64,000 nt of DNA, from positions 196,917 to 260,916 of the forward strand of contig JBAZVG010000001.1 of assembly GCA_041661005.1 (NCBI GenBank). The letters are read 5' to 3'. Under the pieces are notes generated by a model. The model had not been told where the DNA came from. It searched no databases and saw nothing but the letters and a program-made list of their open reading frames with translations. Below are positions 1 to 55,335 of the stretch, piece after piece (position 1 is the stretch's first letter; each line of letters opens with the position of its first letter). The DNA is from Minisyncoccota bacterium (GTDB lineage Bacteria; Patescibacteriota; Minisyncoccia; Phycocordibacterales; UBA9973). The position numbers and the translations under genes are program-made.

Positions 1-1006
<1,006 letters not shown>

Positions 1007-6856: not shown

Positions 6857-8581
6857 ATGGACAATATTAGTAAAAATAGAATATGTCAAAATTGTCGAGG
6901 TGAATTTGTAATCGAATCGGAGGATTTTAATTTCTACGAAAAGATGAAAGTTCCTGCGCCGACTTTTTGTCCGGAGTGTCGACTCATCAGGAGGCTTGTG
7001 TTGAGAAATGAGCGTATTTTATACAAACGTGAGTGTAATTTATGTAAAAAAAATATTATTTCGATTTATCATCAATCTGTACCTTTTCCAGTGTATTGTC
7101 TTCAATGCTGGTACGGCGATGGCTGGGATCCAGTTTCTTTCGGGCGGGACTATGACTTCTCTAGGCCCTTTTTTGAACAATGGAAAGGATTTTCCGATTC
7201 TGCTCCACGACTTGCTTTATGGCACAGAAATGCGATCAATTCCGATTACTCGAGCTTTGTAGGAGAGTCGAAGAATGTTTATTTATCAGTCTCGGTAGTT
7301 CTTGGATCAGAAAATGTATTTTATTCAAAATTTGTGGATAAATCAACGGATATTGTTGATTGTTTGAATATTAAAGACGGACAAATTCTTTATGAAGACA
7401 TAGAGGGCGAAAAAAATTACAATTGCCAGCACCTTTTCTTATCAAAGAATTGTATTGATTCTTTTTTTCTCGTTGACTGCACAAATTGCAGTAATTGTTT
7501 ACTTTCCCATAATTTGCGTAATAAAGAATTTTACATTCGTAATGTGAAATATTCAAAAGAAGAATATTTTAAAGAATTGGAAAAAATTAATTTAAAAAGC
7601 AGAGCGTCAAGAAAAATTTCATTGGAAGAATTTGAAAAAATCAAAATAAAATCTATTTATCGTTTTGCCAATATTGTAAAATCTGTGAACTCAACAGGGA
7701 ATAATCTTTTAAATGTTAAAAATTGTAAAAATTGTTTCGAAGTTTATGATGCTGAAAATTTAAAATATTGTTATCGGGTATTGAGATCTTTTAAAGATTC
7801 CATGGATACGAGTTATGGGATGAAATCTGAATTAATTTATGAATATATAACTGGCGCTAATACTGATTATAATGTGAAATTTTCTTCCTCTGGAATAAAT
7901 TATGTGCAAAATGCCGAATATACTGATTGTTGCATTAATTGTAATAATATTTTTGGTTGCATTTCTCTGAAGAATAAAGAAAACGCGGTTTTTAATAAAA
8001 TTTACACTAAAGAAGAATTTTTTAAACTTCGTGAAAAAATTATTGACCACATGAATGAAATGCCCTATGTTGACCAAAAGGGAAGAGTTTATAAATATGG
8101 AGAATTTTTCCCAATAGAATTGTCTCCGTTTGCCTACAATGAAACTTTGGCGCAGGAGATAGCTCCGATTACAGAGAAGCAAGCAAGCGCAGAAGGTTAT
8201 CCATGGCGCAAGTCGGACCAAAAGAATTTCAAAATTACAATTCCTGCGGAAGATATTCCAGACAACATCAATGAAGTAAGTGACAAAATTTTGAATGAAG
8301 TTTTGGGTTGCGCGCATGAAGGGAAATGTGAACATCAGTGTAATGAAGCTTTTCGCATAACCAATTATGAATTAAATTTTTATAAAAAACACAGTATACC
8401 ATTGCCGATTCTTTGTCAGAATTGCCGTTATTATGAAAGATCGAAAGTTATGCCATCACTCAAATTGTGGCACAGAAAGTGTATGAAAAAAGGTTGCGAA
8501 AATGAATTTGAAACCTCATATGCTCCAAATCGGCCGGAGATTATTTATTGTGAGCGTTGTTATCAGCAAGAAGTTTATTAA
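6857..8581 (+). CDS. Large cysteine-rich protein of unknown function (574 aa), paralog of 55332-57041
   Basis: ~40 Cys. N- and C-terminal modules read CxxC ... FY.KM.VP.PT.CP.CR, with internal C.NC.NCF.C..L.NK repeats. Clearly alignable end-to-end with the second copy. Confidence 0.8.
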   Translation: MDNISKNRICQNCRGEFVIESEDFNFYEKMKVPAPTFCPECRLIRRLVLRNERILYKRECNLCKKNIISIYHQSVPFPVYCLQCWYGDGWDPVSFGRDYDFSRPFFEQWKGFSDSAPRLALWHRNAINSDYSSFVGESKNVYLSVSVVLGSENVFYSKFVDKSTDIVDCLNIKDGQILYEDIEGEKNYNCQHLFLSKNCIDSFFLVDCTNCSNCLLSHNLRNKEFYIRNVKYSKEEYFKELEKINLKSRASRKISLEEFEKIKIKSIYRFANIVKSVNSTGNNLLNVKNCKNCFEVYDAENLKYCYRVLRSFKDSMDTSYGMKSELIYEYITGANTDYNVKFSSSGINYVQNAEYTDCCINCNNIFGCISLKNKENAVFNKIYTKEEFFKLREKIIDHMNEMPYVDQKGRVYKYGEFFPIELSPFAYNETLAQEIAPITEKQASAEGYPWRKSDQKNFKITIPAEDIPDNINEVSDKILNEVLGCAHEGKCEHQCNEAFRITNYELNFYKKHSIPLPILCQNCRYYERSKVMPSLKLWHRKCMKKGCENEFETSYAPNRPEIIYCERCYQQEVY

Positions 8582-9370: not shown

Positions 9371-10477
9371 ATGAATATAATAATTTTTATCATAATGTTG
9401 TTGGTGTTGGTTCTCGTGCACGAAGCGGGACATTTTTTTACTGCAAAGAAATTTGGTATTCGGGTTGACGAATTTGGATTTGGTTTTCCGCCGAAGATAT
9501 TTGGCAAGAAATATGGTGAGACTGAATATAGTTTGAATTTACTACCCATCGGAGGTTTTGTGAAAATTTTTGGCGAGAACCCCGATGATGAAAACACTAA
9601 CGGGCCGGATGCTAGCCGAAGTTTCGTCAATAAAGCAAAATGGAAGCAAGCGATAGTCTTGGTCGCTGGAGTCACTGCAAATTTTTTATTGGCATGGCTT
9701 TTGTTTTCTGTTGGATTTATGTCTGGAATGCCTACATCAGTGGGTAGTCAGCCGAAAGGTATTAATTTAAATAATGTTTTTTTAACCATAGTTTCTGTTG
9801 CGCCGGATTCTCCAGCTGAAAAAGCAGGACTTAAAACTGGAGATAGGATTGCTGCTGTAGAAATTTTACCTTATACAATGGATGAGCTTAACACTGATGC
9901 TTTTAAAGCATTTATAGTTGCACATCCTCAAAAAGAGTTTGGAATAGAGTATTTAAGAGGTAAAGATGAATATACTCTTCATACAACAAAAGTCACTCCA
10001 ACTGCGGGTATTAATGGTGCACAGCCAATGATAGGCATATCTATGGATATGATCGGCACGGCTAAATTGCCCTTTTTTACAGCCCTAAAAGAGGGAATGG
10101 AGTTAACCCTATTTGTCACAAAAGGCACAGTTGTAGGGCTTTATGAGCTTATTGTAGGCAGTATACAAGGCAAAAGCGACCTTTTGTCATCCGTGACAGG
10201 TCCCGTGGGGATGGTGGGCATAGTAGGTGACGCTTATCAGTTTGGCTTCGTCTATCTTCTTTCTTTTGCCGCACTTATCTCAGTTAATCTTGCAATCATA
10301 AACTTACTTCCGTTTCCGGCGCTAGATGGCGGACGGCTTTTCTTTCTACTGATTGAGAAAATAAAAGGTTCACGAATAAATCCAAAGTTTGCCAATATGG
10401 CCAACATGATTGGTTTTGGTATTTTGATTTTGCTTATGGTTGTAGTCACTTTTCATGATGTAATTAAATTGTTCTAA
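9371..10477 (+). CDS. rseP: Site-2 protease / M50 zinc metalloprotease RseP family with PDZ domain
   Basis: HEAGHF (HExxH) in TM1, a PDZ region, and NLLPFPALDGGRL. Confidence 0.85.
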   Translation: MNIIIFIIMLLVLVLVHEAGHFFTAKKFGIRVDEFGFGFPPKIFGKKYGETEYSLNLLPIGGFVKIFGENPDDENTNGPDASRSFVNKAKWKQAIVLVAGVTANFLLAWLLFSVGFMSGMPTSVGSQPKGINLNNVFLTIVSVAPDSPAEKAGLKTGDRIAAVEILPYTMDELNTDAFKAFIVAHPQKEFGIEYLRGKDEYTLHTTKVTPTAGINGAQPMIGISMDMIGTAKLPFFTALKEGMELTLFVTKGTVVGLYELIVGSIQGKSDLLSSVTGPVGMVGIVGDAYQFGFVYLLSFAALISVNLAIINLLPFPALDGGRLFFLLIEKIKGSRINPKFANMANMIGFGILILLMVVVTFHDVIKLF

Positions 10478-10507
10478 AAATACTCTAACATTCTATAGAA
10501 TATTAGA

Positions 10508-11275
10508 ATGAAAAATCAAGGTAAAAAAATAAAATTAATTCACGAGATTCGAGCTGTTAAGAGCAGGAAGGAACTTGCATATATTGTAAAAGCGCAAAGA
10601 ATATCAGAAAAAGTATTAACAGATACTGTAAAAAAATTACGTACAGGCGTGACAGAACTTGAAATTGCGGATTTAATTAAAAAAGCATATATCAGCCATG
10701 GCGTAAATGTGTTATCTTTTCCGCCTATAGTCGCTTTTGGGAAAAATACCGCAAATATTCATCATGAACCCAACAAAACAAAATTAAAAAAAGGGAATAC
10801 TGTGATGTTTGATTTTGGATGCACAGTAAATCATTATTGTTCTGATATGACGCGGACATATTTCTGGGGTGAACCGAGTGCAAAGCAAAAGAAAATTTAT
10901 TTAATTGTTTTAGAAGCTCAAGAAATAGCTATTAGCAAAATAGAAAAGGGAGAGCGGCAGGCAAAGGTTATAGATAACGTAGCGCGAAAATTTCTTAATA
11001 AAAAATACAGAAATAAATCCGCCTCGGATCGACCGAGTCGAGACGGGTTTCCACATGGTCTTGGTCATGGAGTAGGTACTGTCATTCACGAATGGCCGAA
11101 TTTTAAACCAAAGAGTGAAGATATCCTTCCGACAGGATGCGTGATGACTATTGAGCCCGGACTATATTTCAAAGGTTTTGGCGGAATACGGATCGAAGAT
11201 ATGATTCTGATTACCAAAAATGGCTGCAAGAACCTAACCAATTTTCCTAAAGATTTAAAAAACGCAATTATATAA
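10508..11275 (+). CDS. M24-family metallopeptidase (Xaa-Pro dipeptidase / aminopeptidase catalytic domain only)
   Basis: Pita-bread fold motifs: FDFGC..N.Y.SD.TRT, HGLGHGVG.VIHE, EPG.Y and GIRIED. Confidence 0.75.
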   Translation: MKNQGKKIKLIHEIRAVKSRKELAYIVKAQRISEKVLTDTVKKLRTGVTELEIADLIKKAYISHGVNVLSFPPIVAFGKNTANIHHEPNKTKLKKGNTVMFDFGCTVNHYCSDMTRTYFWGEPSAKQKKIYLIVLEAQEIAISKIEKGERQAKVIDNVARKFLNKKYRNKSASDRPSRDGFPHGLGHGVGTVIHEWPNFKPKSEDILPTGCVMTIEPGLYFKGFGGIRIEDMILITKNGCKNLTNFPKDLKNAII

Positions 11276-11293
11276 AATAATCAAACTTTTTCC

Positions 11294-11366
11294 GGTACGA
11301 ATTTTTTTAAGCTTAAAAAATCCTGAAATTCTCTGCTCGTCAGCCTCGAAACCCCTCCAAAAGTTT
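11294..11366 (+). repeat. 72-bp intergenic repeat, copy 1 (GGTACGRATTTTTTTAAGCTTAAAAAATCCTGAAGTTYTCGGCTCGTCAGCCTCGAAACCCC..AAAAGTT)
   Basis: Three near-identical copies in this window (11294, 14908, 26738), all outside CDSs. Contains a perfect palindrome GATTTTTTTAAGCTTAAAAAAATC. Confidence 0.65.
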
Positions 11367-11416
11367 ATTATTTTATATATTTTGAAAAAAACAATTATCA
11401 AGGTATACTGTTTCCT

Positions 11417-12385
11417 ATGGCAAAAAAGAAGTTAAAAATTGGAGTGCTTTTTGGAGGAAAATCAGCGGAACATGAAGTTTCTATAAATTCAGCGCATAAT
11501 GTCATCAATGCTCTCGATAAAACTAAATATCAAATAACCCCAATAAAAATAAATATAAACGGGAAATTTAATTTGAATATTGTTAAAAATTTTGATGTGA
11601 TTTTTCCCGTGATGCACGGACCATTTGGTGAAGATGGCAGTATGCAGGGGCTTCTGAAACTTGCTGGAGTGCCGTTTGTGGGTGCGGGAGTATTAGGTTC
11701 AGCTGTTGGAATGGATAAAGATGTAATGAAAAGACTTTTGTTACAGGCAGGAATTCCGATAGGAAAATATATTACATTGAGAGACTATGAGCACATAGAT
11801 TTTAGTAAAGTAAAAAGAGATTTAGGGTTACCGGTTTTTATAAAACCGGCGAATATGGGTTCATCGGTAGGTGTCAGTAAGGTACGAAATGAAGAAGAAT
11901 GGGATAATGCTATAAAAGAGGCTTTTAAATTTGATACGAAAATAATTATAGAAAAATTTATTGATGGACGTGAAATCGAATGCGCAGTCTTGGGTAATAG
12001 TGATCCAAAAGCATCTATCCCAGGTGAAATTATAGCTAATCAAGAATTCTATTCTTACAATGCAAAATATATTGACGAAGGATATGTTATAGAAATTCCA
12101 GCAAAAATAGACAAAAAAACAACTAAAAAAGTTCAAGAGCTGGCGATTAAAGTTTTTAAAACTCTGAATTGTGAAGGTCTGGGGCGAGTGGATTCTTTTG
12201 TGACAAAAAATGGAGAAGTTTTTGTAAACGAAATAAACACGATACCTGGATTTACCAACATCAGTATGTATCCTAAATTATGGGAGGCGAGTGGAATACC
12301 ACAATCAAAACTTCTAGATAAATTGATTGATCTAGCGATAGAACGATTTGAAAAAGAACAGAAATTAAAAACCACAGTTGTCTGA
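11417..12385 (+). CDS. ddl: D-alanine--D-alanine ligase
   Basis: [16 protein letters not shown]-terminus and ATP-grasp motifs; 322 aa. Confidence 0.9.
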
Positions 12386-12391
12386 TATACT

Positions 12392-13600
12392 TTGAAAAAT
12401 AATTTACCTCTTTCCTATATTGAAATTTCTAAAAAGAATTTGATTCACAATATCAAACAATTTAGGAATTTAATAAAAGCGGGAACTAAGATTTCTGTAG
12501 CCATAAAAGGCAATGCTTATGGCCATGGACAAAATATCGTAGCAAAAATTCTTGAGCCACACGTAGATTATTTTCAAGTAAATAACGTGGAAGAGCTTGA
12601 ATCATTGCGTAAAATAAGTCAGAAAAAAGCTTTTGTTTTAGGGTATGTGCAAAATTCGGATTTACCACGTGCTATACGATCAAATTGTATTTTGACTGTC
12701 TTCTCTCTCGGTCAATTAAAAGAAATAAACAAGATATCAAAGAAGCTTAAAAAAATACAAGAAGTTTGTGTCCCAGTTGATGCATATTTAGGGCGTGAAG
12801 GATTTTTATTTAGTGACTTGGGCGAGATTTTCGAAGAAATAAAAAAATCTGGATACGTAAAATTTACAAGTATCTATGCGCATTTTGCAAATATTGAAGA
12901 TGTGTCAAATTTTACTCATGCGCAAAAACAGATTAAGGAATATGAAAAAGCTTTAGAATTGGCGAAAATGTTCGGTTTTGAAAACCCGCCTAGACCCGTT
13001 TCGACGCAAGGCGAGCTCGGCGAGGCTGGCCCGCCTAGACTCGGCGAGGCTGGTTTGCAAACACATATATCTGCCACTTCTGGAATTTTGGTTTATGAAA
13101 AAGATAGTGGAATTAATTCAATCGTGCGATTGGGTATCGGCGCATACGGCATGTGGCCATCAGAACATTTAAAAAAAGTTTATGAAAATGAAAAATTCAA
13201 TCTGAAACCAGTGTTGTCATGGAAAACAAAGATCGCGCAAGTAAAAATCTTAGAAAAAGGGAATACCGTTGGTTATGGATTGACCTATAAAACAAATCAG
13301 AAAACAAAAATAGCAATTATCCCTCAAGGATATGCCGATGGTCTAGATCGTGGTCTTTCAAACAAGGGAGAGGTTTTGATCGGGGGCGCTCGATGTAAAA
13401 TCATAGGCAGGGTATCGATGAATATGTTTGCGGTTAATGTAAATCATTTGTCAGTTGTTAAAGTCGGCGACGAAGTTGTGATTATCGGAATTCAAAATAA
13501 AGAGAAAATTACGGCAGAGCAGGTGGCGAAAAAATTAGATACGATAAATTATGAAATTACCACGCGGATAAGTTCTTTATTGCCGAGAGTTATTACGTAG
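12392..13600 (+). CDS. alr: Alanine racemase
   Basis: PLP-lysine motif AIKGNAYGHG and the C-terminal beta domain. Carries in-frame 45-nt and 24-nt repeat copies (12985-13053). Confidence 0.85.
   Translation: MKNNLPLSYIEISKKNLIHNIKQFRNLIKAGTKISVAIKGNAYGHGQNIVAKILEPHVDYFQVNNVEELESLRKISQKKAFVLGYVQNSDLPRAIRSNCILTVFSLGQLKEINKISKKLKKIQEVCVPVDAYLGREGFLFSDLGEIFEEIKKSGYVKFTSIYAHFANIEDVSNFTHAQKQIKEYEKALELAKMFGFENPPRPVSTQGELGEAGPPRLGEAGLQTHISATSGILVYEKDSGINSIVRLGIGAYGMWPSEHLKKVYENEKFNLKPVLSWKTKIAQVKILEKGNTVGYGLTYKTNQKTKIAIIPQGYADGLDRGLSNKGEVLIGGARCKIIGRVSMNMFAVNVNHLSVVKVGDEVVIIGIQNKEKITAEQVAKKLDTINYEITTRISSLLPRVIT
12985..13053 (+). repeat. In-frame 45-nt palindromic element (12985-13029) plus adjacent 24-nt deletion derivative (13030-13053) inside alr
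   Basis: CCCGCCTAGACCCGTTTCGACGCAAGGCGAGCTCGGCGAGGCTGG followed by CCCGCCTAGACTCGGCGAGGCTGG. Translated as PRPVSTQGELGEAG then PPRLGEAG. Other copies lie at 14046, 29298 and 54860. Confidence 0.75.
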
Positions 13601-13635
13601 TTGCTTTTTGTGGTTTTTTATACTAATATCTAAAT

Positions 13636-13794
13636 ATGTCACAAGATAGACTTATAAAACTTGCGTGTGGAACCTGCAAACGAGTAAATTACTGGTCCAG
13701 TAAAAACAAGAAGCTCGTAACTAAAAAAATCGAGCTCAAAAAGTATTGCAAATGGTGCCGAAAACAAACTAAGCACAAAGAAAGTAAAAAATAG
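13636..13794 (+). CDS. rpmG: 50S ribosomal protein L33
   Basis: 52 aa, MSQDRLIKLACGTCKRVNYWSSKNKK..ELKKYCKWCRKQTKHKE, with a CxxC...CxxC zinc ribbon. Below the ORF-track size cutoff. Confidence 0.8.
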   Translation: MSQDRLIKLACGTCKRVNYWSSKNKKLVTKKIELKKYCKWCRKQTKHKESKK

Positions 13795-13853
13795 ATTTTT
13801 AATGCTTTTCTGATATACTTAAAAGCGACCTAGTAAGGTCGTTTTTGGTTATA

Positions 13854-13928
13854 CGGGCGATTAGTTAAGTGGCATAACGAAGGCCTCCAAATCCTTTGTC
13901 GGGGGTTCGATTCCCTCATCGCCCGCCG
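13854..13928 (+). tRNA. tRNA-Trp (anticodon CCA)
   Basis: Acceptor stem GGGCGAT/ATCGCCC, anticodon loop CUCCAAA, T-loop TTCGATT. CCA is not encoded. Confidence 0.8.
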
Positions 13929-13965
13929 ATATATTTTATGAAATTTTTACTATCAATAAATTATA

Positions 13966-14883
13966 TTATTTGGTTAATAATTTCCGCTTTGTTTTTCGCT
14001 GTTGGTGAATTTTTGTCAGGCGAATTTTCTTAGAAGCCCGCCTAGACCCGCTTCGATGCGAAGCGAGCTCGGCGAGGCTGGCATCAAACCATTTTATTTC
14101 TTTATCGCGCTTAAACCATGTCATTTGACGTTTAGCGTATTTTAGAGTTTCAGTGACGACTTTTTCTGGCGTCGGTTTGTAGTATTCAAAACCCAATTCT
14201 TTCAGTCGTTTTTCTGACACACCATTCTTTTTTAACTTTTTAATTTCATTAAGTAAGCCATCTTTGAACATCTTTTTGACCCTTTTTTCTACTTTCTGTC
14301 TTAGTTTATCCTGCGGTAAATACAAGCCTATTTTTATAAATTTATACGGAGGAGACTTCTCCGTAATTTTTGGAACTTTACCGAGAGCTTTCACTATTTC
14401 AATTGCCCTGATTAATCTGATTTTATTTTTTGGGTCTATATTCTTTGCTCGCTCGGGGTCTATTCTTTTTAAATACTCAAATAATGCTATCGCTGATTTT
14501 GAGTATAGTTCTTTACGAAGCTTTTCATTTGGCGGAACTTCTGGGAAAATAATACCTTTAGTCATTGCATCAATGTAAAATCCCGTGCCTCCGCAAATTA
14601 TCGGAGTTTTACCTCGAGCGATTATTTCTTTTATTTTATCTTCAGCTAATTCTTTATATTGCGCTACAGTAAATTTTCTTTTAGGGTTCGCGATGTCTAG
14701 CAGATGATGGGGGACGCCTCGCATTTCTTTTCTTGTTATTTTTCCCGTGCCAATATCAAGGCCTTTGTAAACTTGTCGTGAATCAGCTGAAATTATTTCT
14801 CCATCTATTTTTTTAGCAATCTTTACGGCTAAATCACTTTTACCTGTAGCTGTTTGACCTAATATGATAATGATTGTGGGCAC
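13966..14883 (-). CDS. miaA: tRNA dimethylallyltransferase
   Basis: P-loop GQTATGKS, DSRQVYKGLDIGT(G)K. Likely GTG start at 14883 giving MPTIIIILGQTATGKS. The ORF track extends it to 15003 by reading through the intergenic repeat. The C-terminal tail contains an in-frame copy of the 45-nt element. Confidence 0.85.
   Translation of the reverse strand: MPTIIIILGQTATGKSDLAVKIAKKIDGEIISADSRQVYKGLDIGTGKITRKEMRGVPHHLLDIANPKRKFTVAQYKELAEDKIKEIIARGKTPIICGGTGFYIDAMTKGIIFPEVPPNEKLRKELYSKSAIALFEYLKRIDPERAKNIDPKNKIRLIRAIEIVKALGKVPKITEKSPPYKFIKIGLYLPQDKLRQKVEKRVKKMFKDGLLNEIKKLKKNGVSEKRLKELGFEYYKPTPEKVVTETLKYAKRQMTWFKRDKEIKWFDASLAELASHRSGSRRASKKIRLTKIHQQRKTKRKLLTK
14046..14090 (+). repeat. 45-nt palindromic element, copy within the miaA 3' region (read on the reverse strand as ASLAELASHRSGSRRA)
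   Basis: CCCGCCTAGACCCGCTTCGATGCGAAGCGAGCTCGGCGAGGCTGG, 45 nt, with internal hairpin CGCTTCG-ATG-CGAAGCG. Confidence 0.75.
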
Positions 14884-14907
14884 AGATTGAAAAACGAACT
14901 TTTTTTT

Positions 14908-14979
14908 GGTACGGATTTTTTGAAGCTTGAAAAATCCTGAAGTTCTCGGCTCGTCAGCCTCGAAACCCCGCAAAAAGTT
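14908..14979 (+). repeat. 72-bp intergenic repeat, copy 2 (in the miaA 5' leader / murA 3' flank)
   Basis: GGTACGGATTTTTTGAAGCTTGAAAAATCCTGAAGTTCTCGGCTCGTCAGCCTCGAAACCCCGCAAAAAGTTG. Confidence 0.65.
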
Positions 14980-15002
14980 GTTTTTTATTATTCGCCTCTG
15001 CA

Positions 15003-16538
15003 TTAATTTCCCTTGATTATTTTAATATCTGCGCCGATGGAATTCAATCGCTCGGCGATTTCTTCGTAACCACGATTTATCATATAAACGTTTCGTAGTA
15101 TTGAAGTGCCACTAGCTCCAAGCATTGAGATAAGTATTACCATTGATGGTCGTAAGGCCGGTGGGCAAACGACTTGAGCTCCCTTTAACGCTGTTCCGCC
15201 GTTGATATAGAGGCGATGTGGATCTGCGAGGGTAATATCTGCGCCTAGGCGGTTTAATTCAGTCAGATATATCGCGCGATTCTCATAAACCCAGTCATGG
15301 ATCATTGTTTGACCTTTGGCCTTTATGGCAATAGGCACAAAGAATGGCAGGTTGTCTATATTTATTCCGGGATAGGGATTGGAGTGTAATTTATCATAAA
15401 GAGCTTTTAGTTTGCTTGGGAAAATTTCTACATCTACTAATTTTGTTCGTCCATTAAAAGAATAATAAATTTTTGAAGCTTTGAATTTTAAATTCATTCT
15501 TTTTAGTTTTTCCAATTCTAAAGAAAGAAAGTCTATGGGGACGCGAGTGATGCTGAGTCTCGAGTCAGTGATAATTCCAGCAGAAATAAACATCATGGAT
15601 TCTATAGGGTCTTCACTGTTCCAATATTCTATATCTTTATTTATATTTGCTACGCCATGCACGGTCAGATTGGCAGTGCCGATACCTTCTATTTTTACAC
15701 CCAAAGCTTCAAGAAAAAAACAAACTTCTTGCACCATATAGTTTGCGCTGGCAAAGTTTATTTTTGTGGCGCCAGGTATAAGAGCAGAAGCCATCAAAAC
15801 ATTTTCACAGGCCGTGTCTCCAGATTCATACATTACTATTTCACTTGGTTTTAGTTTTCGTGAAGAGATTTCATAATTCTTTGCCGTAGTCTTTACTTTT
15901 ACCCCGAGTTTTTCTAGGGCGTAGATGTGGGCGGCTATTGTGCGTTTACCTAGATTGCATCCATGTGGATGGGGGAGAGAAAAGGTTGATAATTTATGAA
16001 TGAGTGGACCCATGAGCATTACGACTGAACGAGTTTTGACCGCTGACTCTATGTTTATATTTTCTAAATTAAATTTCTCTCCTGGTGTGATGGTTAAAGT
16101 ATTCTGGTTTAGCCATTTTATTGCGACCCCGATACTTTCGAGAATTTCAATGACCCGATACACTTCCTCGATTCGCGCTATGCCATGCAAGGTTGTTGTC
16201 CCCCTGTTTAAGAGCGAAGCGCAAAGAAGCCCGACCGAACCATTTTTAGAAAAATTAGTTTTGATAGTTCCACTTAATTTTTTCCCTCCATGCACTTCGA
16301 AATCGATCGAATCATTTATAGAAACTATTTGATGATCTAAAACATTGCTTATTTTTAAAAGTAATTCAGTTGTAAAATTTTGTTCGCCTTTTTCCATTCG
16401 GGGGATAGAACTTTGAGAAGTATTCAGCGCTTTAGCAAATTGCTCTTGAGTCATTCCGCGGTGTTCGCGCAATTCTTTGATAAAATAACCTATCTTTTGT
16501 TGTTCGGTCTGTACTGTTGATTTTATATTTTTTGTCAT
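15003..16538 (-). CDS. murA: UDP-N-acetylglucosamine 1-carboxyvinyltransferase (MurA) with an N-terminal HTH_XRE DNA-binding domain fusion
   Basis: N-terminal ~75 aa reads GYFIKELREHRGMTQEQFAKALNTSQSSIPRMEKGE (XRE HTH). The rest is an EPT fold with a GCNLGKR loop and ~420 aa MurA-like sequence. Confidence 0.8.
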   Translation of the reverse strand: MTKNIKSTVQTEQQKIGYFIKELREHRGMTQEQFAKALNTSQSSIPRMEKGEQNFTTELLLKISNVLDHQIVSINDSIDFEVHGGKKLSGTIKTNFSKNGSVGLLCASLLNRGTTTLHGIARIEEVYRVIEILESIGVAIKWLNQNTLTITPGEKFNLENINIESAVKTRSVVMLMGPLIHKLSTFSLPHPHGCNLGKRTIAAHIYALEKLGVKVKTTAKNYEISSRKLKPSEIVMYESGDTACENVLMASALIPGATKINFASANYMVQEVCFFLEALGVKIEGIGTANLTVHGVANINKDIEYWNSEDPIESMMFISAGIITDSRLSITRVPIDFLSLELEKLKRMNLKFKASKIYYSFNGRTKLVDVEIFPSKLKALYDKLHSNPYPGINIDNLPFFVPIAIKAKGQTMIHDWVYENRAIYLTELNRLGADITLADPHRLYINGGTALKGAQVVCPPALRPSMVILISMLGASGTSILRNVYMINRGYEEIAERLNSIGADIKIIKGN

Positions 16539-17998: not shown

Positions 17999-18922
17999 AT
18001 GAGCAAGACAATAAAGACTTTTTTGAAATATGGATTTGTGGCAATTGTCGCTATTTTTATAGCCTTTTTGTCGTCAGTCGCTTTTGCTATAGATGAGGTA
18101 AATGTTAATCCAGCAAGTGATTCGGAAAATGGTAATGAAAACGCAAATCCAGGAAGTGGTTCAGAAAGAGGTAGTGAGGTAAATGTTAATCCAGGAAATG
18201 GTTCAGAAAACGGTAATGAAGGTGGAAATGTGGATACAATCCCTGGCGATGTAACTCCTCCAGATGGTGGACCTACCGGAGATAGCTCTGGCAGTAGAAG
18301 TACTGGTAGTAGCAGAACAAGCACCCAGAATATTTCTGACATTAAAGTTACGCTTGTTGGTTCTTCTGTCTCTATAACTAATCTCGTTCGCGGAGGTACT
18401 TACACTATTTCTTGGGACGCATCAGTTCAAAACGCAGACACTTCTATTAGTTTAGTTTCTTCTTATGGTTCAAATATTTTAATCGGCACAAGCAAGAATG
18501 CAAACGGTGCTAATACTTTAAATTGGACTGTTCCCACATATCTAGCTCTCGGTACTTACACTTTACGCTTTACGGATTCTAGTAATCGAATGACCGACGC
18601 TTCGAACGTGTATAGGATAGTATCTCGAAGATCTTCTAACGCAGGCGCAGAAGCTCTAGGAACTGGTGGCGGAAATTTAATTGACACAGATGGAGAATCC
18701 TCAACTGTTTCGCCTGATGAAACAGAAGTTTTACCATCGGAAGATTCGCAAATTTCGGACGAGACTTCTCCCGTAGATCAGACAGCCGCAGTTGGAAATG
18801 CTTTTACAGATTTCTTGAGTAATAAGTATATTTTGTGGTTCTTTGTTCTTCTACTTATCATTGTTGGCGCTCTTTTTTTTCAAGAACGCAAAGATAGCGA
18901 TAAATTCCCTTTTAACAAGTAA
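17999..18922 (+). CDS. Cell-surface repeat protein (signal peptide, EVNVNP.(S/N).SENGNE repeats, Ser/Thr/Gly-rich, C-terminal TM anchor)
   Basis: N-terminal TM/signal, three imperfect ~20-aa repeats, C-terminal hydrophobic ILWFFVLLLIIVGALFF. Confidence 0.6.
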   Translation: MSKTIKTFLKYGFVAIVAIFIAFLSSVAFAIDEVNVNPASDSENGNENANPGSGSERGSEVNVNPGNGSENGNEGGNVDTIPGDVTPPDGGPTGDSSGSRSTGSSRTSTQNISDIKVTLVGSSVSITNLVRGGTYTISWDASVQNADTSISLVSSYGSNILIGTSKNANGANTLNWTVPTYLALGTYTLRFTDSSNRMTDASNVYRIVSRRSSNAGAEALGTGGGNLIDTDGESSTVSPDETEVLPSEDSQISDETSPVDQTAAVGNAFTDFLSNKYILWFFVLLLIIVGALFFQERKDSDKFPFNK

Positions 18923-19506: not shown

Positions 19507-20046
19507 TCATAATTTCCAGAAGTTGATAATTTTTATAAATTTTTCCACATTCTTTGAAATTCTAATTATATATTTAACTCTATTTTTCTTTATGTCCAAG
19601 ACTTTTCTTGCTTTTATTGCAAAGCCAATTTCTTGGAGCATATCCTCTATATCTCTAATTAGAGTATAACAAACTGACGTAAAATTTACCATTTTGTAGC
19701 CTCGATCACTATAGATTGATCCGTCTGTTTGGAATAATCCTCGCAAACATTCTTTTCTATAAACCTTATTTTCCTTGATCCAGCTAGGCACGCCTACCTT
19801 CTGTTTAATTTTTGAACCACCTTTAGCTCCCCATCCCAATATTTTTTCTAAATCATTTGAATAAATACATATGTCTAAGGCATTAACTCGATCTGTGATA
19901 GAAATTTTGTTTTGAGTAAAAATTATTTTTAGATTTTTAATTATATTTTCTACAATTAGAGGATACTTTTTATCACAAGTAATTCTAAGTCTAACAGCTC
20001 TTCCATTTGGATTCGACAAATTACCATCCCCGAGAGCTATGCCCAT
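19507..20046 (-). CDS. LAGLIDADG-family homing endonuclease (double-motif, free-standing)
   Basis: Two LAGLIDADG motifs: IMGIALGDGNL and LRGLFQTDGSIY. The ORF track starts it at 20127, but that extension is antisense to tRNA-Leu, so the internal ATG at 20046 is more plausible. Confidence 0.7.
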   Translation of the reverse strand: MGIALGDGNLSNPNGRAVRLRITCDKKYPLIVENIIKNLKIIFTQNKISITDRVNALDICIYSNDLEKILGWGAKGGSKIKQKVGVPSWIKENKVYRKECLRGLFQTDGSIYSDRGYKMVNFTSVCYTLIRDIEDMLQEIGFAIKARKVLDIKKNRVKYIIRISKNVEKFIKIINFWKL

Positions 20047-20086
20047 TATGTAGGCTATAGATTTTTTATTATTTATATGAGGCAAG

Positions 20087-20170
20087 TGCCGGGAGGGAGA
20101 CTCGAACTCCCACGGGGTTGCCCCCAAACGATTTTGAGTCGTTCGCGTAAACCAATTCCGCCATCCCGGC
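20087..20170 (-). tRNA. tRNA-Leu (anticodon CAA), type II with long variable arm
   Basis: Reverse complement reads GCCGGGA ... anticodon loop CUCAAAA ... variable stem GGGG-GCAA-CCCC ... T-loop TTCGAGT ... TCCCGGC-A. Confidence 0.8.
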
Positions 20171-26710: not shown

Positions 26711-26737
26711 ACTCTTTATCGGTATATCTTTTTCTAG

Positions 26738-26810
26738 GGTACGGATTTTTTTAAGCTTAAAAAATCCTGAAGTTTTCGGCTCGTCAGCCTCAAAACCCCC
26801 TAAAAAAGTT
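26738..26810 (+). repeat. 72-bp intergenic repeat, copy 3
   Basis: GGTACGGATTTTTTTAAGCTTAAAAAATCCTGAAGTTTTCGGCTCGTCAGCCTCAAAACCCCCTAAAAAAGTT. Confidence 0.65.
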
Positions 26811-26837
26811 ATCCCTCAATGAGTTTACTTTATTTTT

Positions 26838-28663: not shown

Positions 28664-29722
28664 ATGCACGACTTGGCATTATATCGCAAATATCGGCCGA
28701 AAAACTTCAAGGAAGTCTTGGGGCAAGATCATATCGTAAAAGTGCTGGAAAGCTCTGTAGAAGCCAACAAGGTTTCCCACGCATACCTTTTTGTAGGTTC
28801 GCGTGGCACAGGCAAAACTTCCGTCGCCAGAATTTTTGCAAATGAAATCGGTGTATCAGCCAATGACTTATATGAGATAGACGCCGCCAGCAATAGGGGA
28901 ATCGAAGATATAAAAGAATTGCGTGATGGCGCGCGAGTATTGCCTTTTGATTCAAAATACAAAGTTTATATAATCGACGAAGTGCATATGCTCTCCAAAG
29001 ACGCTTGGGGTGCGTTATTGAAGACCCTAGAAGAACCTCCAAAACATGTTATTTTTATTCTAGCTACCACTGAGTTTCATAAAGTGCCTGAGACTATTAT
29101 CTCACGCTGTCAGGTTTTCACTTTCAAAAAAGCATCAGACGTAGTTTGTAAAAAAATGCTGACTGATGTTGGGAAGAAAGAAGGTTTCGATTTGGATGCC
29201 GGCTCGGCCGAGCTTTTAGCTGTATTATCTGATGGATCGTTCAGGGATGGATTGGGAGAGTTGCAAAAAGTTTTGAATTTCAGTGGAAGTAAGAAAACCC
29301 GCCTAGACTCGGCGAGGCTGGTCAATAGAGAAGATGTTGAAAAAATAACCGGCGCGCCAAAGGCGACTTTGGTAAATGATTTTATTTCAGCAATTGCAGA
29401 AAAAAATATTGAAAAAGGAATATCTGTCGTGCGATCTGCGGCTGAAGAAAATTTAGATATGGAATTATATTTGAAACTCATTATCGCAAAATTCCGTATG
29501 GCGATAATTTTGCGATACGCGCCAAAATTAAAAGGAGAGATGATAGGGGATTTATCTGAAGCTGATTTAGAATTTCTGCAGATTTTAATAAAAGAAAGTG
29601 GGGAGATGTTTAATTCTTCTACTCTAGCGACACTTTTAGAAGCTTATCAGAATATAGATAATGCGTTTATTACCGAGTTACCACTGGAGCTTGCGTTAGT
29701 GAAGATTTTAAGCAAAGAGTAA
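28664..29722 (+). CDS. dnaX: DNA polymerase III gamma/tau subunit (short form)
   Basis: YRKYRP..F.EV.GQ.H ... HAYLF.G.RGTGKTS.ARI.A ... AWGALLKTLEEPP. Carries an in-frame 24-nt repeat copy. Confidence 0.85.
   Translation: MHDLALYRKYRPKNFKEVLGQDHIVKVLESSVEANKVSHAYLFVGSRGTGKTSVARIFANEIGVSANDLYEIDAASNRGIEDIKELRDGARVLPFDSKYKVYIIDEVHMLSKDAWGALLKTLEEPPKHVIFILATTEFHKVPETIISRCQVFTFKKASDVVCKKMLTDVGKKEGFDLDAGSAELLAVLSDGSFRDGLGELQKVLNFSGSKKTRLDSARLVNREDVEKITGAPKATLVNDFISAIAEKNIEKGISVVRSAAEENLDMELYLKLIIAKFRMAIILRYAPKLKGEMIGDLSEADLEFLQILIKESGEMFNSSTLATLLEAYQNIDNAFITELPLELALVKILSKE
29298..29321 (+). repeat. 24-nt short form of the 45-nt element inside dnaX (translated TRLDSARL)
   Basis: CCCGCCTAGACTCGGCGAGGCTGG, identical to the short copy in alr. 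Confidence 0.7.
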
Positions 29723-30695: not shown

Positions 30696-30766
30696 TGGGG
30701 GATCGTCTAATGGTAGGACACATCCCTTTGAAGGATGTTATTTTGGTTCGAGTCCAAGTCCCCCAG
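30696..30766 (+). tRNA. tRNA-Gln (anticodon UUG)
   Basis: Acceptor TGGGGGA/TCCCCCA, anticodon stem-loop CATCC-CUUUGAA-GGATG, T-loop TTCGAGT. GC content jumps immediately at its 3' end. Confidence 0.8.
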
Positions 30767-32446: not shown

Positions 32447-32532
32447 GGAAATGGGTGATTAAAATAAGGGAGGCGGGCGACCTTGGAGCCTGCATCCCTA
32501 TGCTAACGTACCGGCAAAATACGTCAATGAGG

Positions 32533-32796
32533 TCACTGGCTAAGACGGTTCTCGTCGGGCTCCTTGTCTGAACCCGGCTGCTTCAGAATCCCGAAGAAGC
32601 GAAGTAGACGCACAGCGATTTCTTGGATCTCGTCGTCGCTAAGACGCTTACCGAACTCCTCTTGGTAAATGGCTCTGAACTCCTCGATAGCTTCACGACT
32701 TAGTTGTTGTGGTGTTTTCATATCGTCCACTTTACTTGCTGTTACTCTTCGGCAAAGGACGGAAGAATTGCCACATACGGCATGTCCGCATTGCAC
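32533..32796 (-). CDS. Small helical hypothetical protein upstream of the recombinase (possible directionality or regulatory factor)
   Basis: ORF only; the likely true start is an internal Met (MKTPQQLSREAIEEF...). Confidence 0.3.
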   Translation of the reverse strand: MQCGHAVCGNSSVLCRRVTASKVDDMKTPQQLSREAIEEFRAIYQEEFGKRLSDDEIQEIAVRLLRFFGILKQPGSDKEPDENRLSQ

Positions 32797-33024
32797 TTGG
32801 AACTAGAATTCGGGGCACCTCCCTTGACGAATAGCGAGTTTCGTGCTTAAATACGAAAACCTTCCACCGAGTTCAAGAAGCTCGGTGTTTAATAGGTTTG
32901 CCATTTCTGGCAAAGGTTCCCGCCTTTGGTATTTTTACCATTGAGATATGGTGGTGTCGTGGAACTCGCATTGGGTTCCTCCGCTTCCACACTGATGACT
33001 TCACTTCAACTTCCAAACTATTTG

Positions 33025-33366: not shown

Positions 33367-33471
33367 TCATTGTAATCGAAATAACTAACCACATAGGTGG
33401 AAGAAGCGGCCCATCATGACCGAAAAATAAACCACGTAAAAACGAAATTATCTGCTGGATTGTTTGCTTTT

Positions 33472-37766: not shown

Positions 37767-37801
37767 TTTATAACTTTCTAGGAAAGTGATATAATCCCAA
37801 C

Positions 37802-38638: not shown

Positions 38639-38639
38639 T

Positions 38640-52365: not shown

Positions 52366-55335
52366 ATGATTTCACGGATATATGTGATACCTAAAAACGA
52401 AGCAACCAAGGCAGATTCTTATTTGATTGACTCTAAATTATCTAAAAAAGAACTTGTAAAACTAGCTCAGACACTTACTAATCCTATTTTGGAGGATTAT
52501 TTTATAGACGAATCTCCAAGAGTTGGAAACTTTTCCCATGCAATCGAAATAGGATTTTTACCGGGGGTCACAGATAATGTCGGCCATACAGTCAAAGAAA
52601 TTGCGACAGATATGCTTCATCTAAAAAAGAATTTCAGTTTGGCGGTTTATACCTCCAAGATTTTTTTTATTAATTCACACGGCCTTGAAGACGCCCAGAA
52701 ACACTCTCTTACTTTATACAATCCGCTTATTGAAAGAGCCCTTTTTGTAGAGATAAAATCCGGAAAAATAGATTTGCCAAATAAAATACCTGAAGTTGTT
52801 TTAAGAAAAGGTGTGTCAATTTTACCTGTTTCACTTTCAGTGTCAGATGAAGAACTTATAAAAATAGGGAAAGAAGGAATACTGGACGAGACAAATTTAC
52901 GCAGGGGACCTTTAGCGCTTGATCTATCTTCAATGCAAGCTATTCAAAAATATTTTTCTTCGCTAAAAAGAAACCCGACTGATATAGAGCTCGAATCTCT
53001 AGCTCAAACTTGGTCAGAACATTGCAAGCACACTATTTTTGCAAATGAAATAGATGATATTAAAGATGGCTTGTATAAAACTTACATAAAAGGGGCGACA
53101 AATTTAATAAGAAAACAAAAGACAGAGAGAGGTCAGCAGGATTTTTGTGTTTCTGTTTTTAGTGATAATGCTGGCGGAATAATTTTTGATGAAGATTATT
53201 TAATAACACACAAAGTCGAAACCCATAACAGCCCTTCGGCTCTCGATCCATTTGGTGGAGCAATCACAGGCATAGTAGGGGTGAATCGCGACACAATCGG
53301 CTTTGGATTGGGCGCCAAACCGATAGCCAATACTTATGGATTTTGTTTTGGTAATCCGGAAGATACAAGACCGCTTTTTCGAGATAAAGAGCAGAAACAA
53401 AGAATGCTTTTACCGAAACGCATCATGGAAGGGGTGGTAAAGGGAATAAACGTCGGAGGAAACTGCTCCGGGATTCCGACTCTTTCTGGATTTATCAAAT
53501 TTGACGATAGATATAGGGGGAAACCTTTGGTTTTTGCCGGAACTGTTGGATTAATTCCAAGAAACTTATCTATCCATGGAGGGAAAAAACAACTATCGCA
53601 TGAAAAACAGGCACGAGTAGGGGATTATATAGTTATGGTTGGTGGAAGGGTAGGACTCGATGGAATACATGGAGCCACTTTTTCTTCCGTAACTATGGAT
53701 TCGACTTCTCCTGCGACAGCAGTGCAGATAGGAGATCCGATAACTCAAAAGAAACTTAGCGATAGCATCGTCAAAGAAGCGCGCGATATGAATTTATATA
53801 CTAGCATCACAGATAACGGTGCTGGTGGGCTGTCATGTTCAGTATCCGAGATGGCAAAAGAATGCGGTGGAGCAAAAGTTTTCATAGAAAAAATACCACT
53901 TAAATATCCAGGTCTTCTTCCTTGGGAAATTTGGATTTCTGAATCGCAAGAACGAATGACTTTGTCTGTTCCAAAAAATAAATGGAAAATGTTCCAAAAG
54001 TTGATGGAAAGTCGGGGGGTAGAAGCGATTGTGATTGGAGAATTCACAAATTCTGGAAAAGTTATCGTGCAATATAAAGGAAAAAAAATTATGGATATAG
54101 ATATGGAGTTTTTGCACAACGGATTGCCGAAACATTATTTAAACACTACTCCAGTGATAATCAAAAATCTTGAGCCTGCATTACCTAAAGGTCTATCACG
54201 CACAAAGGTTCTAGAAAAATTGTTAGGTGAAAAAAATATCAGCGGATTTGCTTTCATTTCCGAGCAGTATGACCACGAGGTGCAAGCATCTTCCGTGTTA
54301 AAACCGTTGTCCGGGAGGGGACGTATTAATACCGACAGTCAAATTTTTCGTCCGGTTTTGAATTCAAACAAAGGAGTTGTGTTGTCATCCTCAAGCTATC
54401 CTTCATACGGAGACATAAGCTCTTATGACATGGCATCTTGCGCGCTCGATACTGCAATTCGAAACATAATTGCATCAGGTGGTACGCTTTCACACCTTGC
54501 GATACTAGATAATTTCTGCTGGTGCTCATCAAATGATCCGAAACGGCTATACCAGCTTGTAGAGGCTGTAAAGGCTTGTCATGACACAGCTATCGGCTAC
54601 GGGACGCCGTTTATCTCTGGTAAAGACAGTATGTTCAATGATTTTAAAGGATATGATGAAAAAGGTAATCCTGTTTCTATCTCCATCCCGCCAACCCTTT
54701 TGATTTCTGCGATTAGTGTAATGCCTGATTTATATAAAACAGTTTCACCAGAATTTAAAAATAGTGGGGATATAATTTATTTACTGGGAGAAACGCATGA
54801 TGAATTAGGCGCAAGCGAATATTATAAACTTTTGGTAAAACAAGAGGGGAATAATGCAACCCACCTAGACCCGCTTCGATGCGAGGCGAGCTCGGCGAGG
54901 CTGGTAGGCAATAGTGTGCCAAAAGTTAATTTAGAAAAAAATCTAAAAACTTATTTAGCGTTAGAGAAGGCTATTCAAAAAGAACTGTTAGCTTCTTCGC
55001 TTTCTGTAACTTCCGGAGGCTTTGGAATCGCCTTAACTAAAGCATCTATTGGTGGAATGCTCGGATGTGAAATAAACATCAAAAACATGCTGGGGGGCTC
55101 AAATTTGGCCGATGTGAAGCTTTTTTCTGAAAGCCAGGGTAGGATATTGGTTTCTGTATCTCCTAAAAACACAAAGCAGTTTGAAAGAATAATGCAGGAA
55201 ATTCCTTGTGCTAAACTTGGAAAAGTAACAAAAAATGATAAGTTTGTAATTTTAGATGGTAAAGATAAAATTGTCGAAACAAATATTAAAAAATTGCACG
55301 CCATTTATCATAAATTTTCGAATTCACAACAATGA
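52366..55335 (+). CDS. purL: Phosphoribosylformylglycinamidine synthase subunit PurL with a large-type N-terminal (PurS-like) domain; glutaminase encoded separately
   Basis: RNPTDIELESLAQTWSEHCKHTIF (compare NP.DIEL.M.AQ.NSEHCRHKIF), VETHNSPSALDPFGGA, AIR-synthase-like domains; 989 aa. Carries an in-frame 45-nt element at 54860-54904. Confidence 0.85.
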   Translation: MISRIYVIPKNEATKADSYLIDSKLSKKELVKLAQTLTNPILEDYFIDESPRVGNFSHAIEIGFLPGVTDNVGHTVKEIATDMLHLKKNFSLAVYTSKIFFINSHGLEDAQKHSLTLYNPLIERALFVEIKSGKIDLPNKIPEVVLRKGVSILPVSLSVSDEELIKIGKEGILDETNLRRGPLALDLSSMQAIQKYFSSLKRNPTDIELESLAQTWSEHCKHTIFANEIDDIKDGLYKTYIKGATNLIRKQKTERGQQDFCVSVFSDNAGGIIFDEDYLITHKVETHNSPSALDPFGGAITGIVGVNRDTIGFGLGAKPIANTYGFCFGNPEDTRPLFRDKEQKQRMLLPKRIMEGVVKGINVGGNCSGIPTLSGFIKFDDRYRGKPLVFAGTVGLIPRNLSIHGGKKQLSHEKQARVGDYIVMVGGRVGLDGIHGATFSSVTMDSTSPATAVQIGDPITQKKLSDSIVKEARDMNLYTSITDNGAGGLSCSVSEMAKECGGAKVFIEKIPLKYPGLLPWEIWISESQERMTLSVPKNKWKMFQKLMESRGVEAIVIGEFTNSGKVIVQYKGKKIMDIDMEFLHNGLPKHYLNTTPVIIKNLEPALPKGLSRTKVLEKLLGEKNISGFAFISEQYDHEVQASSVLKPLSGRGRINTDSQIFRPVLNSNKGVVLSSSSYPSYGDISSYDMASCALDTAIRNIIASGGTLSHLAILDNFCWCSSNDPKRLYQLVEAVKACHDTAIGYGTPFISGKDSMFNDFKGYDEKGNPVSISIPPTLLISAISVMPDLYKTVSPEFKNSGDIIYLLGETHDELGASEYYKLLVKQEGNNATHLDPLRCEASSARLVGNSVPKVNLEKNLKTYLALEKAIQKELLASSLSVTSGGFGIALTKASIGGMLGCEINIKNMLGGSNLADVKLFSESQGRILVSVSPKNTKQFERIMQEIPCAKLGKVTKNDKFVILDGKDKIVETNIKKLHAIYHKFSNSQQ
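54860..54904 (+). repeat. 45-nt palindromic element copy inside purL (translated THLDPLRCEASSARL)
   Basis: CCCACCTAGACCCGCTTCGATGCGAGGCGAGCTCGGCGAGGCTGG. Confidence 0.75.

Follow-up and report, generated by a model that had tools for sequence, protein, structure and literature searches.

An in-frame insertion of nested 24- and 21-nucleotide GC-rich elements in miaA of a Minisyncoccota bacterium

We describe a GC-rich insertion in miaA, the gene for tRNA dimethylallyltransferase, within a 64,000-nucleotide (nt) stretch (hereafter the window) of contig JBAZVG010000001.1 from a Minisyncoccota bacterium. Specifically, the 45 nt at positions 14037-14081 consist of a 24-nt element (E1, CCCGCCTAGACTCGGCGAGGCTGG) that carries a 21-nt hairpin (E2, CCCGCTTCGATGCGAAGCGAG) nested at GA^C, where ^ marks the point of insertion. 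We interpret this composite as one insertion of a dispersed, selfish and non-autonomous family of GC-rich mini-elements in the AT-rich genome of a member of the Patescibacteria (Candidatus Paceibacterota/Nomurabacteria-like), and we estimate the probability of this interpretation at roughly 75%. The window has a GC content of about 37-38%, compared with 71% in the element, and its genes are densely packed. The orthologues of its MiaA and DnaX proteins carry the names Candidatus Nomurabacteria or Paceibacterota.

Insertion in miaA

Alignment with orthologues at both the DNA and the protein level delimited the insert as exactly 15 codons. The orthologues, which are at most 82% identical to the window protein, end in ...DKEIKWFDAS^KKI..., and the window reads DASLAELASHRSGSRRASKKIRLTK... 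up to the stop. In all 27 aligned MiaA orthologues DKEIKWFDAS was followed by a short variable tail, mostly with KKI or KKL at its start, and a gap of 15 amino acids (aa) stood opposite the insert. At the DNA level, two relatives (L001 and L003) have GATGC^GTCAAAA where the window has GATGC, the 45 nt and then TTCTAAGAAAATT. In the orientation of the element, the landing point lies between the G and the C of AAG^CAT, and a G/C ambiguity means that the insert could equally be placed at 14036-14080 or 14038-14082. No target-site duplication was found when the empty and the filled site at miaA were compared. The frame of MiaA is unchanged because 45 = 3 x 15, and since the window resumes at KKI directly after the 15 residues, the alignment points to an internal in-frame interruption of the native C-terminus that did not replace the tail. 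The KKI anchor and the length of 45 nt exclude a frameshift or a replacement of the tail.

The preliminary description of this locus had also recognised a 45-nt repeat element here, read on the antisense strand of miaA, and its translation (ASLAELASHRSGSRRA, then S, then KKIRLTKIHQQRKTKRKLLTK) was correct. Its coordinates (14046-14090) lie about 9 nt too far to the right, so that they omit the first 9 nt of the element and take in 9 nt of native miaA. The suggestion that the C-terminus had been extended or replaced holds for the extension, by 15 aa, and fails for the replacement, as the KKI tail resumes in frame. The basic tail that follows the element was not created by it; it is native and varies among orthologues. 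Homology does not end at the element: the orthologues continue with DAS-KKI beyond it. Relatives with a MiaA that lacks the element, as had been anticipated, were found throughout (insert in 0/120 orthologues).

With regard to the protein, the Pfam family IPPT matched MiaA at 5.9e-65 with its full profile over residues 77-300, and the insert lies outside this match, which ends at residue 300. The insert is separated by 21 codons from the stop (66 nt upstream of the stop codon). Beyond KKI, the tail is free to vary among orthologues in length (~5-30 aa) and sequence. In an AlphaFold2 model, residues 40-310 were confident, with the last strand at 303-307, and the predicted local distance difference test score (pLDDT) in the tail dropped from 54 to ~42 across 311-345, with 317-345 below 50. 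The model thus places the insert after the last conserved strand, in a variable, probably disordered tail that has no modelled structure. The effect on MiaA is probably small, as 15 residues were added to a tail that already varied freely, and the miaA copy alone is most likely a neutral passenger.

Copies in the window

Five copies of the family were found in the window (Table 1), all intragenic (two in alr and one each in miaA, a dnaX-like gene and a purL-like gene), and all four open reading frames (ORFs) stay open through them. The long form differs from the short form by the 21 nt of E2. A repeat search grouped the long copies in one family (D3; 12982-13030, 14034-14082 and 54857-54905) and the short ones in another (D12; 13030-13054 and 29298-29322). 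Searching with a 33-nt core returned 14050-14082 exactly and 54873-54905 with 2 mismatches (0 expected in shuffles), and the 17-nt right end matched five times in the window, always on the + strand (0.03 expected). All left and right element ends in the window pair up within 45 nt.

Table 1 Coordinates of miaA, the composite, its parts, the other family copies and repeat D1 in the window
Feature	Position	Strand	Details
miaA (tRNA dimethylallyltransferase)	13966..15003	-	longest ORF, 345 aa; stop 13968-13966
Native variable MiaA tail KKIRLTKIHQQRKTKRKLLTK	14033-13969	-	from orthologue alignment
45-nt composite, E1 with nested E2	14037..14081	+	antisense in miaA, residues 310-324, LAELASHRSGSRRAS
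E1 left part CCCGCCTAGA	14037..14046	+	same as left part of the short forms at 13030 and 29298
E2 CCCGCTTCGATGCGAAGCGAG	14047..14067	+	long minus short form; nested at GA^C
E1 right part CTCGGCGAGGCTGG	14068..14081	+	from repeat families and public copies
Long-form copy in alr	12985..13029	+	sense, PPRPVSTQGELGEAG; E2 stem partly decayed
Short-form copy (E1 only) in alr	13030..13053	+	tandem, directly after the long copy; PPRLGEAG
Short-form copy in DNA polymerase III gamma/tau-like (dnaX-like) linker	29298..29321	+	(T)RLDSARL(V); gene 28664-29722
Long-form copy, CCCACC variant, in purL-like FGAM synthase	54860..54904	+	HLDPLRCEASSARLV; gene 52366-55335
D1, larger repeat outside the E1/E2 family	14890..14986	+	antisense between murA-like gene and miaA core

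The tandem in alr adds 23 residues that are not in orthologues; it splits an AAT codon at A^T, and here too there is no duplication; the alr genes of two relatives (L003 and L004) lack the copies and show the empty site GAA AA^T ATT. The composite folded well as RNA (-26.4 kcal/mol on the + strand, z = -3.5; -32.3 kcal/mol on the - strand, z = -4.0) and also as DNA (-11.5 and -14.7 kcal/mol; z = -2.2 to -3.0), and E2 alone gave a DNA fold of -7.5 kcal/mol (z = -4.3). With E1 alone a weak hairpin, the term palindromic element suits E2 and the composite better than it suits E1. The decayed E2 stem of the long alr copy is as expected for DNA that is not structurally constrained.

Distribution in public genomes

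GTDB species representatives were searched with a 20-nt core of E1 (CCTAGACTCGGCGAGGCTGG), which returned at least 117 loci. The core was exact in at least 99 loci (at least ~106 copies), and the four bases before it were CCCG in 100 of the listed copies and differed by one base in the remaining six. Most of the 99 listed loci (73) were labelled as Patescibacteria lineages, which included Nomura-, Moran-, Falkow-, Giovannoni-, Levy-, Gottesman-, Curtiss-, Buchanan- and Liptonbacteria as well as Saccharibacteria. The other 26 were labelled Gammaproteobacteria, Bdellovibrionales, Ignavibacteriales and others; among these non-Patescibacteria hosts only Ignavibacteriales was confirmed by protein homologues, and the rest are labels. 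The confirmed case is a copy in an alpha-amylase (L060), the homologues of which are Ignavibacteriales or Melioribacteraceae proteins on Mb-scale contigs. The source assemblies comprised metagenome-assembled genomes (MAGs), one single-cell genome and contigs that many projects had produced independently, and the essential genes with family copies were alr, dnaX, purL, miaA, grpE-like, RNase HII-like and others. Carriage by phages or plasmids was not supported, as E1 was absent from the 50,697 phage records and 72,556 plasmids searched and from IMG/VR.

E1 was often located within the loops of E2-like hairpins, within other E1 copies or in tandem. Nesting was seen as E1 in E2, E2 in E1 and E1 in E1, and the reversed nesting in other genomes consisted of an E2-like hairpin (CCCGCTTCG...CGAGGCGAG) with E1 in its loop. 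When metagenomes were scanned for E1 copies interrupted by an inner insert of 7-30 nt, 30 instances were recovered, with insert lengths of 21 (x10), 9 (x6), 24 (x6, tandem), 30 (x3), 27 (x2), 12, 7 and 14 nt. The length was a multiple of 3 in 28 of the 30, and in 18 of the 20 that were distinct and not tandem (p = 2e-7). The identical 45-nt composite occurred at 9 or more other distinct sites, and therefore the composite also moves as a unit.

In one Patescibacteria MAG (MAG223, JAYEHH01; L008, L024, L025, L041, L071, L080, L090 and L115), E1 was always found inside a larger repeat (..GCCAGCCAGAGG[E1]CTGGTCGCTCTTCGAGCGAG..), with ~10 copies among the loci retrieved. E1 is therefore also carried passively by bigger repeats.

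Reading phase and orientation

For a census of reading phases, orthologous and duplicate loci were merged to 82 distinct E1 sites, and a site was taken as coding when it lay in an open frame of at least 150 codons. Inside such ORFs we found 52 of the 82 sites (63%), 25 in sense and 27 in antisense, which bears out the earlier proposal that either orientation can be tolerated; the non-coding share was 37% compared with a background of 18%. All 52 coding sites were in one of the four phases that are free of stops, which has a chance of 7e-10 if phase is irrelevant (one third would be expected with TAG). The phase counts were 20 for PPRLGEAG, 21 for PASPSLGG, 5 for RLDSARL and 6 for SLAESRR, the last being the phase of the miaA copy, and the phases rich in Pro, Gly, Ser and Ala accounted for 41/52 (p = 4e-5). 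Copies were located at any position along the host proteins. The miaA phase recurred in an antisense long copy within an ORF of 763 codons (SLAELASRRSGSRR; L136). Because resident copies use stop-free phases only and insert lengths are multiples of 3, we take these statistics as evidence that the copies are translated, with selection on the protein.

An in-silico deletion search for mid-gene copies in a TAG phase gave no convincing case. Five candidates that would have meant splicing or bypass were rejected, as they lay upstream of starts, near 3′ ends or in dubious ORFs. A replication-linked strand rule was also rejected, given that orientation relative to GC skew was split 40 vs 52 among 92 public loci (p = 0.25) and orientation relative to the gene strand 25 vs 27. 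In the window itself all five copies are on the + (leading, G-rich) strand, as the preliminary description had it for genomic orientation, although five copies are too few for significance (two-sided p = 0.06) and the wider census has no strand rule.

Insertion sites and turnover

The base before the copy (-1) was a purine (G/A) in 89 of 105 copies and the base after it (+1) a pyrimidine (C/T) in 98 of 105, and the two were complementary (G^C or A^T) in 61. No direct repeats were found at the flanks; 3 nt were common to both flanks in only 2 of the 105 copies. Where E1 had entered E2, or E2 had entered E1, the insertion point was in a hairpin loop. One orthologous site can be empty, short-form or long-form. 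The linker of dnaX, for example, has E1 in four genomes (three short and one long), and among 120 DnaX orthologues about three quarters (75%) had the empty site (..SKKIKRED..) and 8 had E1, which splits an Ile codon (A^TT) behind an A-run; one of the 8 has a single substitution and one is the long form. E1 was found in four orthologues of the Ignavibacteriales amylase; one version is decayed (PASQDLGA) and one is expanded, and the closest homologue (92% identity), like ~110 others, has no E1. We interpret these patterns as copies being gained and lost rapidly at hot spots that tolerate them, which would also account for the young look of most copies.

The same spot in the dnaX linker (~29290-29325; orthologues P0121-P0240) also holds at least four other families of GC-rich inserts. 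The inserts seen there included TRLDSARLV (which is E1), TPNQSKLGTGQ, HPSLRPPLxKGRVGVG, SLPAQAGG and others, and the HPSLRPPL..GRVG type resembles GC-rich islands of the window at 22817-22866 (in topA) and 61058-61086. In relatives, further small GC-rich hairpin inserts were found elsewhere in alr and miaA. The alr gene of L003 (16184-17347, -) has a KKPARRGG insert (CCTGCCCGCCGTGGCGGGGGG), with miaA of L003 at 10001-10993, and MiaA proteins of relatives (P0009, P0011, P0013, P0044, P0051, P0072 and P0082) carry other inserts such as ALRL..RSGPSARK, PARPPKSGAGG, PARLGG/LARLGG/PTRLGG and PARMIHSGG. E1 and E2 therefore belong to a larger collection of mini-inserts.

Weighing of the interpretations

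On the selfish interpretation, the family is modular: E1 and E2 enter host DNA as well as the loops of one another, and the 45-mer E1[E2] spreads as a unit too. With unit lengths in multiples of 3 and four of six phases free of stops, copies would be translated as peptides of 8 or 15 residues. Those in tolerant gene parts (linkers, loops and tails) would persist, and selection would purge those that fall in constrained regions or in either TAG phase. The miaA copy would have added LAELASHRSGSRRAS to a naturally variable tail and, as selfish DNA, would serve no function there. Movement would be provided in trans by an enzyme that prefers purine^pyrimidine steps and hairpin loops. A single-strand or cruciform DNA targeting activity is suggested because target duplication is lacking and because loops and purine^pyrimidine steps are preferred. 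The analysis itself establishes the insertion and its limits, the missing target duplication, membership of the family, tolerance in frame in either orientation, the marks of selection on phase and length, and patchy turnover at orthologous sites; that the copy is selfish and was moved in trans is our inference.

Several observations weigh against this interpretation. A mobilising enzyme was not found in Pfam scans of essentially all ORFs of the window (~60). E1 alone is a weak hairpin (DNA fold of -3.5 kcal/mol, z = -0.3). At the dnaX site E1 is identical at 24/24 positions in four genomes, and the flanks in this essential gene are just 65-80% identical; we explain this identity by turnover and re-insertion at a hot spot, and it is possible that it stems from a sequence-specific function or from homogenisation. 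The copies were found by exact match, so diverged copies are under-sampled. The closest relative available for comparison at miaA is 82% identical. Lastly, translation of the miaA copy is deduced from ORF integrity and family-wide statistics rather than observed.

The identity of E1 would also suit a functional DNA signal, either a DNA-uptake sequence for competence in these episymbionts or a binding site for a conserved protein, that spread by molecular drive, with the miaA copy as one of many such sites that coding DNA happens to tolerate. E1 is letter-perfect across many Patescibacteria classes and Ignavibacteriales, at the dnaX site it is more conserved than the flanking codons, it has no orientation bias with respect to genes or GC skew, and DprA is encoded in the window. 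We nonetheless regard such a signal as unlikely, considering that the density is low (5 copies per 64 kb), that the copies are clean insertions and not products of point mutation, that they nest in one another and form tandems, that they are patchy at orthologous sites with one copy decayed, and that they show no orientation or spacing pattern. The strong predicted hairpin on both strands (-26 / -32 kcal/mol, z = -3.5 / -4.0), situated near the 3′ end of miaA and facing the convergent tRNA-Trp gene (13855-13927), could instead point to an RNA with a regulatory or terminator-like role, that is, an mRNA stabiliser or a bidirectional terminator between miaA and rpmG-tRNA-Trp. We would be surprised by this, given that the hairpin is inside the ORF, 66 nt before the stop codon, that the sister copies in alr, dnaX and purL occupy linkers in the middle of their ORFs, that the stem of the alr copy has decayed and that orthologues do without the element. 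An intrinsic terminator was rejected, as there is no T-run, the hairpin is within the ORF and a terminator scan of 13500-15200 did not call it. A known RNA family or ribozyme was rejected too, since a search of Rfam 15 returned only tRNAs for the window at the gathering score, and likewise for 11200-15100 at E<=1.

It is also conceivable, with a likelihood slightly lower again, that the element is removed before or during translation, by intron-like excision or by bypass, and that MiaA is made without the 15 residues. Bypass can occur at GC-rich hairpins inserted in the AT-rich genes of mitochondria (the 'byp' elements of Magnusiomyces), and our element, too, forms a stable hairpin. The frame and length rules count against removal because removal would make frame and length irrelevant: insert lengths are multiples of 3 (p = 2e-7), phases that contain stops occur at 0/52 coding sites (p = 7e-10), and the phases in use are skewed towards peptides rich in Pro, Gly, Ser and Ala. 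As for an artefact of assembly or sequencing, or a chance GC-rich similarity, the same 24-mer in many unrelated assemblies could be technical sequence. We give this almost no credence, as E1 was recovered from MAGs, a single-cell genome and contigs of many independent projects, copies are always in frame in intact genes, related species share orthologous sites (one variant of which has decayed) and zero matches are expected in shuffles. The reading of the miaA copy as one insertion of a selfish mini-element family is the one that we favour.

Repeat D1 and other features of the window

The other end of miaA is overlapped by a larger repeat, D1, with copies in the window at 11276-11372, 14890-14986 and 26720-26816 (all +), in L001 and L003 at ~9999-10125 (-) and in L019 at 7790-7916. 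D1 has a conserved core of 62 nt (GGTACGGATTTTTTTAAGCTTAAAAAATCCTGAAGTTCTCGGCTCGTCAGCCTCGAAACCCC) that folds into two hairpins, and these are closed by a long outer stem, which keeps its pairing although its sequence varies between copies (compensatory changes at 13 pairs across 6 sequences). D1 had no match in Rfam. It looks loosely hammerhead-like (CUGAAG...GAAAC) with a non-canonical core, and it may represent a structured RNA or else an element whose insertion targets are palindrome centres.

Across 14884-15003, D1 is antisense to the murA-like gene and to miaA and the frame is open; the ATG of the long miaA ORF overlaps the stop of the murA-like gene by 1 nt. D1 gives this long ORF an N-terminal extension of 40 residues (..NNFLRGFEADEPRTSGFFKLQKIRTKKK..), the conserved core of MiaA starts near a GTG at 14883-14881, and typical orthologues have a length of 275-290 aa. 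Compared with one orthologue (P0043, MKKRNFL^RKPK...), D1 accounts for 29 extra aa (87 nt, which is divisible by 3). Extensions of the D1 type are annotated in many database MiaA proteins. The AlphaFold2 pLDDT was <50 for residues 1-38, the D1-encoded end. Hence, miaA may carry in-frame repeats at both ends.

miaA is convergent with rpmG (13636-13794) and tRNA-Trp (13855-13927), and the murA-like gene sits immediately upstream of it. This upstream gene (15003-16538, -) is an unusual fusion of an N-terminal HTH_3 domain (Cro/C1-type helix-turn-helix) with an EPSP-synthase/MurA-like domain, and the fusion is kept in relatives L001 and L003-L005.

The Pfam scans detected no transposase, HUH enzyme or reverse transcriptase among the ~60 ORFs, and we rejected a local mobilising gene; the only recombinase or nuclease candidates were a large serine recombinase and a LAGLIDADG-like ORF. 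The latter (19507-20127, -) resembles a homing endonuclease (LAGLIDADG_3, E = 1.2e-11) and abuts or overlaps tRNA-Leu (20086-20170, -). The serine recombinase gene (30707-32446, -) is in an island of higher GC content (30696-39650; 44-49% vs ~36%) that starts at tRNA-Gln (30696-30767) and also includes an RHS-repeat fragment, an EamA-like fragment, a TPR protein and a C-5 cytosine DNA methylase (38640-39647, -). This island is probably an integrated mobile element.

Other repeats in the window included two paralogous ORFs of ~570 aa (6857-8581 and 55332-57041) with DNA stretches that are 70-80% identical (repeat families D2 and D7). Their sole Pfam match was a weak treble-clef zinc finger, and one of them adjoins the purL-like gene. 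Two tandem repeats were also detected, one of 42-nt period and 3.1 copies (18093-18219) in the ORF at 17999-18922, where it encodes repeats rich in Gly, Ser, Glu and Asn, and one that is intergenic with a perfect 18-nt unit in 3.3 copies (40272-40331; ACTTCGTCCATTACGACC).

Significance and comparison with known systems

The ultra-small genomes of Patescibacteria are usually held to be streamlined and poor in mobile DNA, and here they have many elements of 21-24 nt inside essential genes. The family bears on gene annotation and on protein-length statistics in the Candidate Phyla Radiation, where it accounts for many of the 'lineage-specific insertions' in proteins, and its copies are natural markers for strain tracking. 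The multiple-of-3 rule and the stop-free phases make it a clear case in which protein-level selection has shaped mobile DNA. The family also raises the question of how a 24-nt sequence copies itself with no target duplication and stays identical across phyla.

A bolder and more doubtful claim, which we offer tentatively, would be that E1 and E2 are the smallest self-propagating bacterial DNA elements so far (21-24 nt), modular and tuned to codon length, inserting preferentially at purine^pyrimidine steps and loops with no target duplication, and crossing letter-perfect between Patescibacteria and Ignavibacteriales. If this were true, the sequence identity would imply a broadly shared mobilising activity or a sequence-specific cellular function (uptake, binding or homing), and the miaA copy together with D1 at the 5′ end would show that housekeeping proteins are routinely remodelled in reduced genomes.

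A full-text literature search gave no description of elements of this kind, either for Patescibacteria or for the Candidate Phyla Radiation. In other groups, the Rickettsia palindromic elements (RPEs) are dispersed repeats that stand in frame in housekeeping genes of a reduced AT-rich genome, are translated and have no transposase (PMC10969869). Like them, E1 and E2 lie in frame in many unrelated housekeeping genes, add peptides to tolerant regions and have no transposase of their own. By description, they are set apart from RPEs, which are ~100-150 bp long and found in Rickettsia only (RPE-1..10), by their lengths of 24 and 21 nt (45 for the composite), and they are also modular, nested, present in both orientations and four phases, and spread across Patescibacteria and beyond.

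The GC clusters of mitochondria, such as GC42 of yeast, are GC-rich hairpins in an AT-rich genome that merge, shuffle and turn over fast, and although their transposition mechanism is unknown, an enzyme supplied in trans, either an endonuclease or a reverse transcriptase, is suspected (PMC4478555). What E1 and E2 have in common with these clusters, and with the hairpin elements of fungal and sponge mitochondria, is short GC-rich units that merge or nest in AT-rich DNA and come and go quickly. GC42 differs in having a putative AG or TAG target-site duplication and in being mostly intergenic and organellar, whereas E1 and E2 have no duplication, are bacterial and are located in ORFs in 63% of cases; the strict multiple-of-3 length rule is a feature of E1 and E2.

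DNA uptake sequences (DUS/USS) occur about once per kb and arise by substitution, whereas E1 has 5 copies in 64 kb and these are clean insertions. [quoted passage not shown] Repetitive extragenic palindromic (REP) sequences, which RAYT (TnpA-REP) transposases mobilise, are imperfect palindromes of 20-40 nt that are non-autonomous, occur in many copies and have no target-site duplication, compatible with single-strand HUH-type chemistry. E1 and E2 resemble REPs and their bacterial interspersed mosaic elements (BIMEs) as short, multicopy, non-autonomous units with no target duplication, and E2 and the composite, though not E1, fold well. REPs differ in being extragenic, with a GTAG head and a RAYT gene in the genome, whereas E1 and E2 are mostly intragenic and start with CCCGC, with no GTAG; a Y1/HUH (Y1_Tnp-like) domain was not found in the ORFs of the window.

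The family in miaA resembles RPEs in function and mitochondrial GC clusters in structure and dynamics, and among in-frame selfish repeats it seems to be a variant that has not been described before and that is unusually small and widespread.

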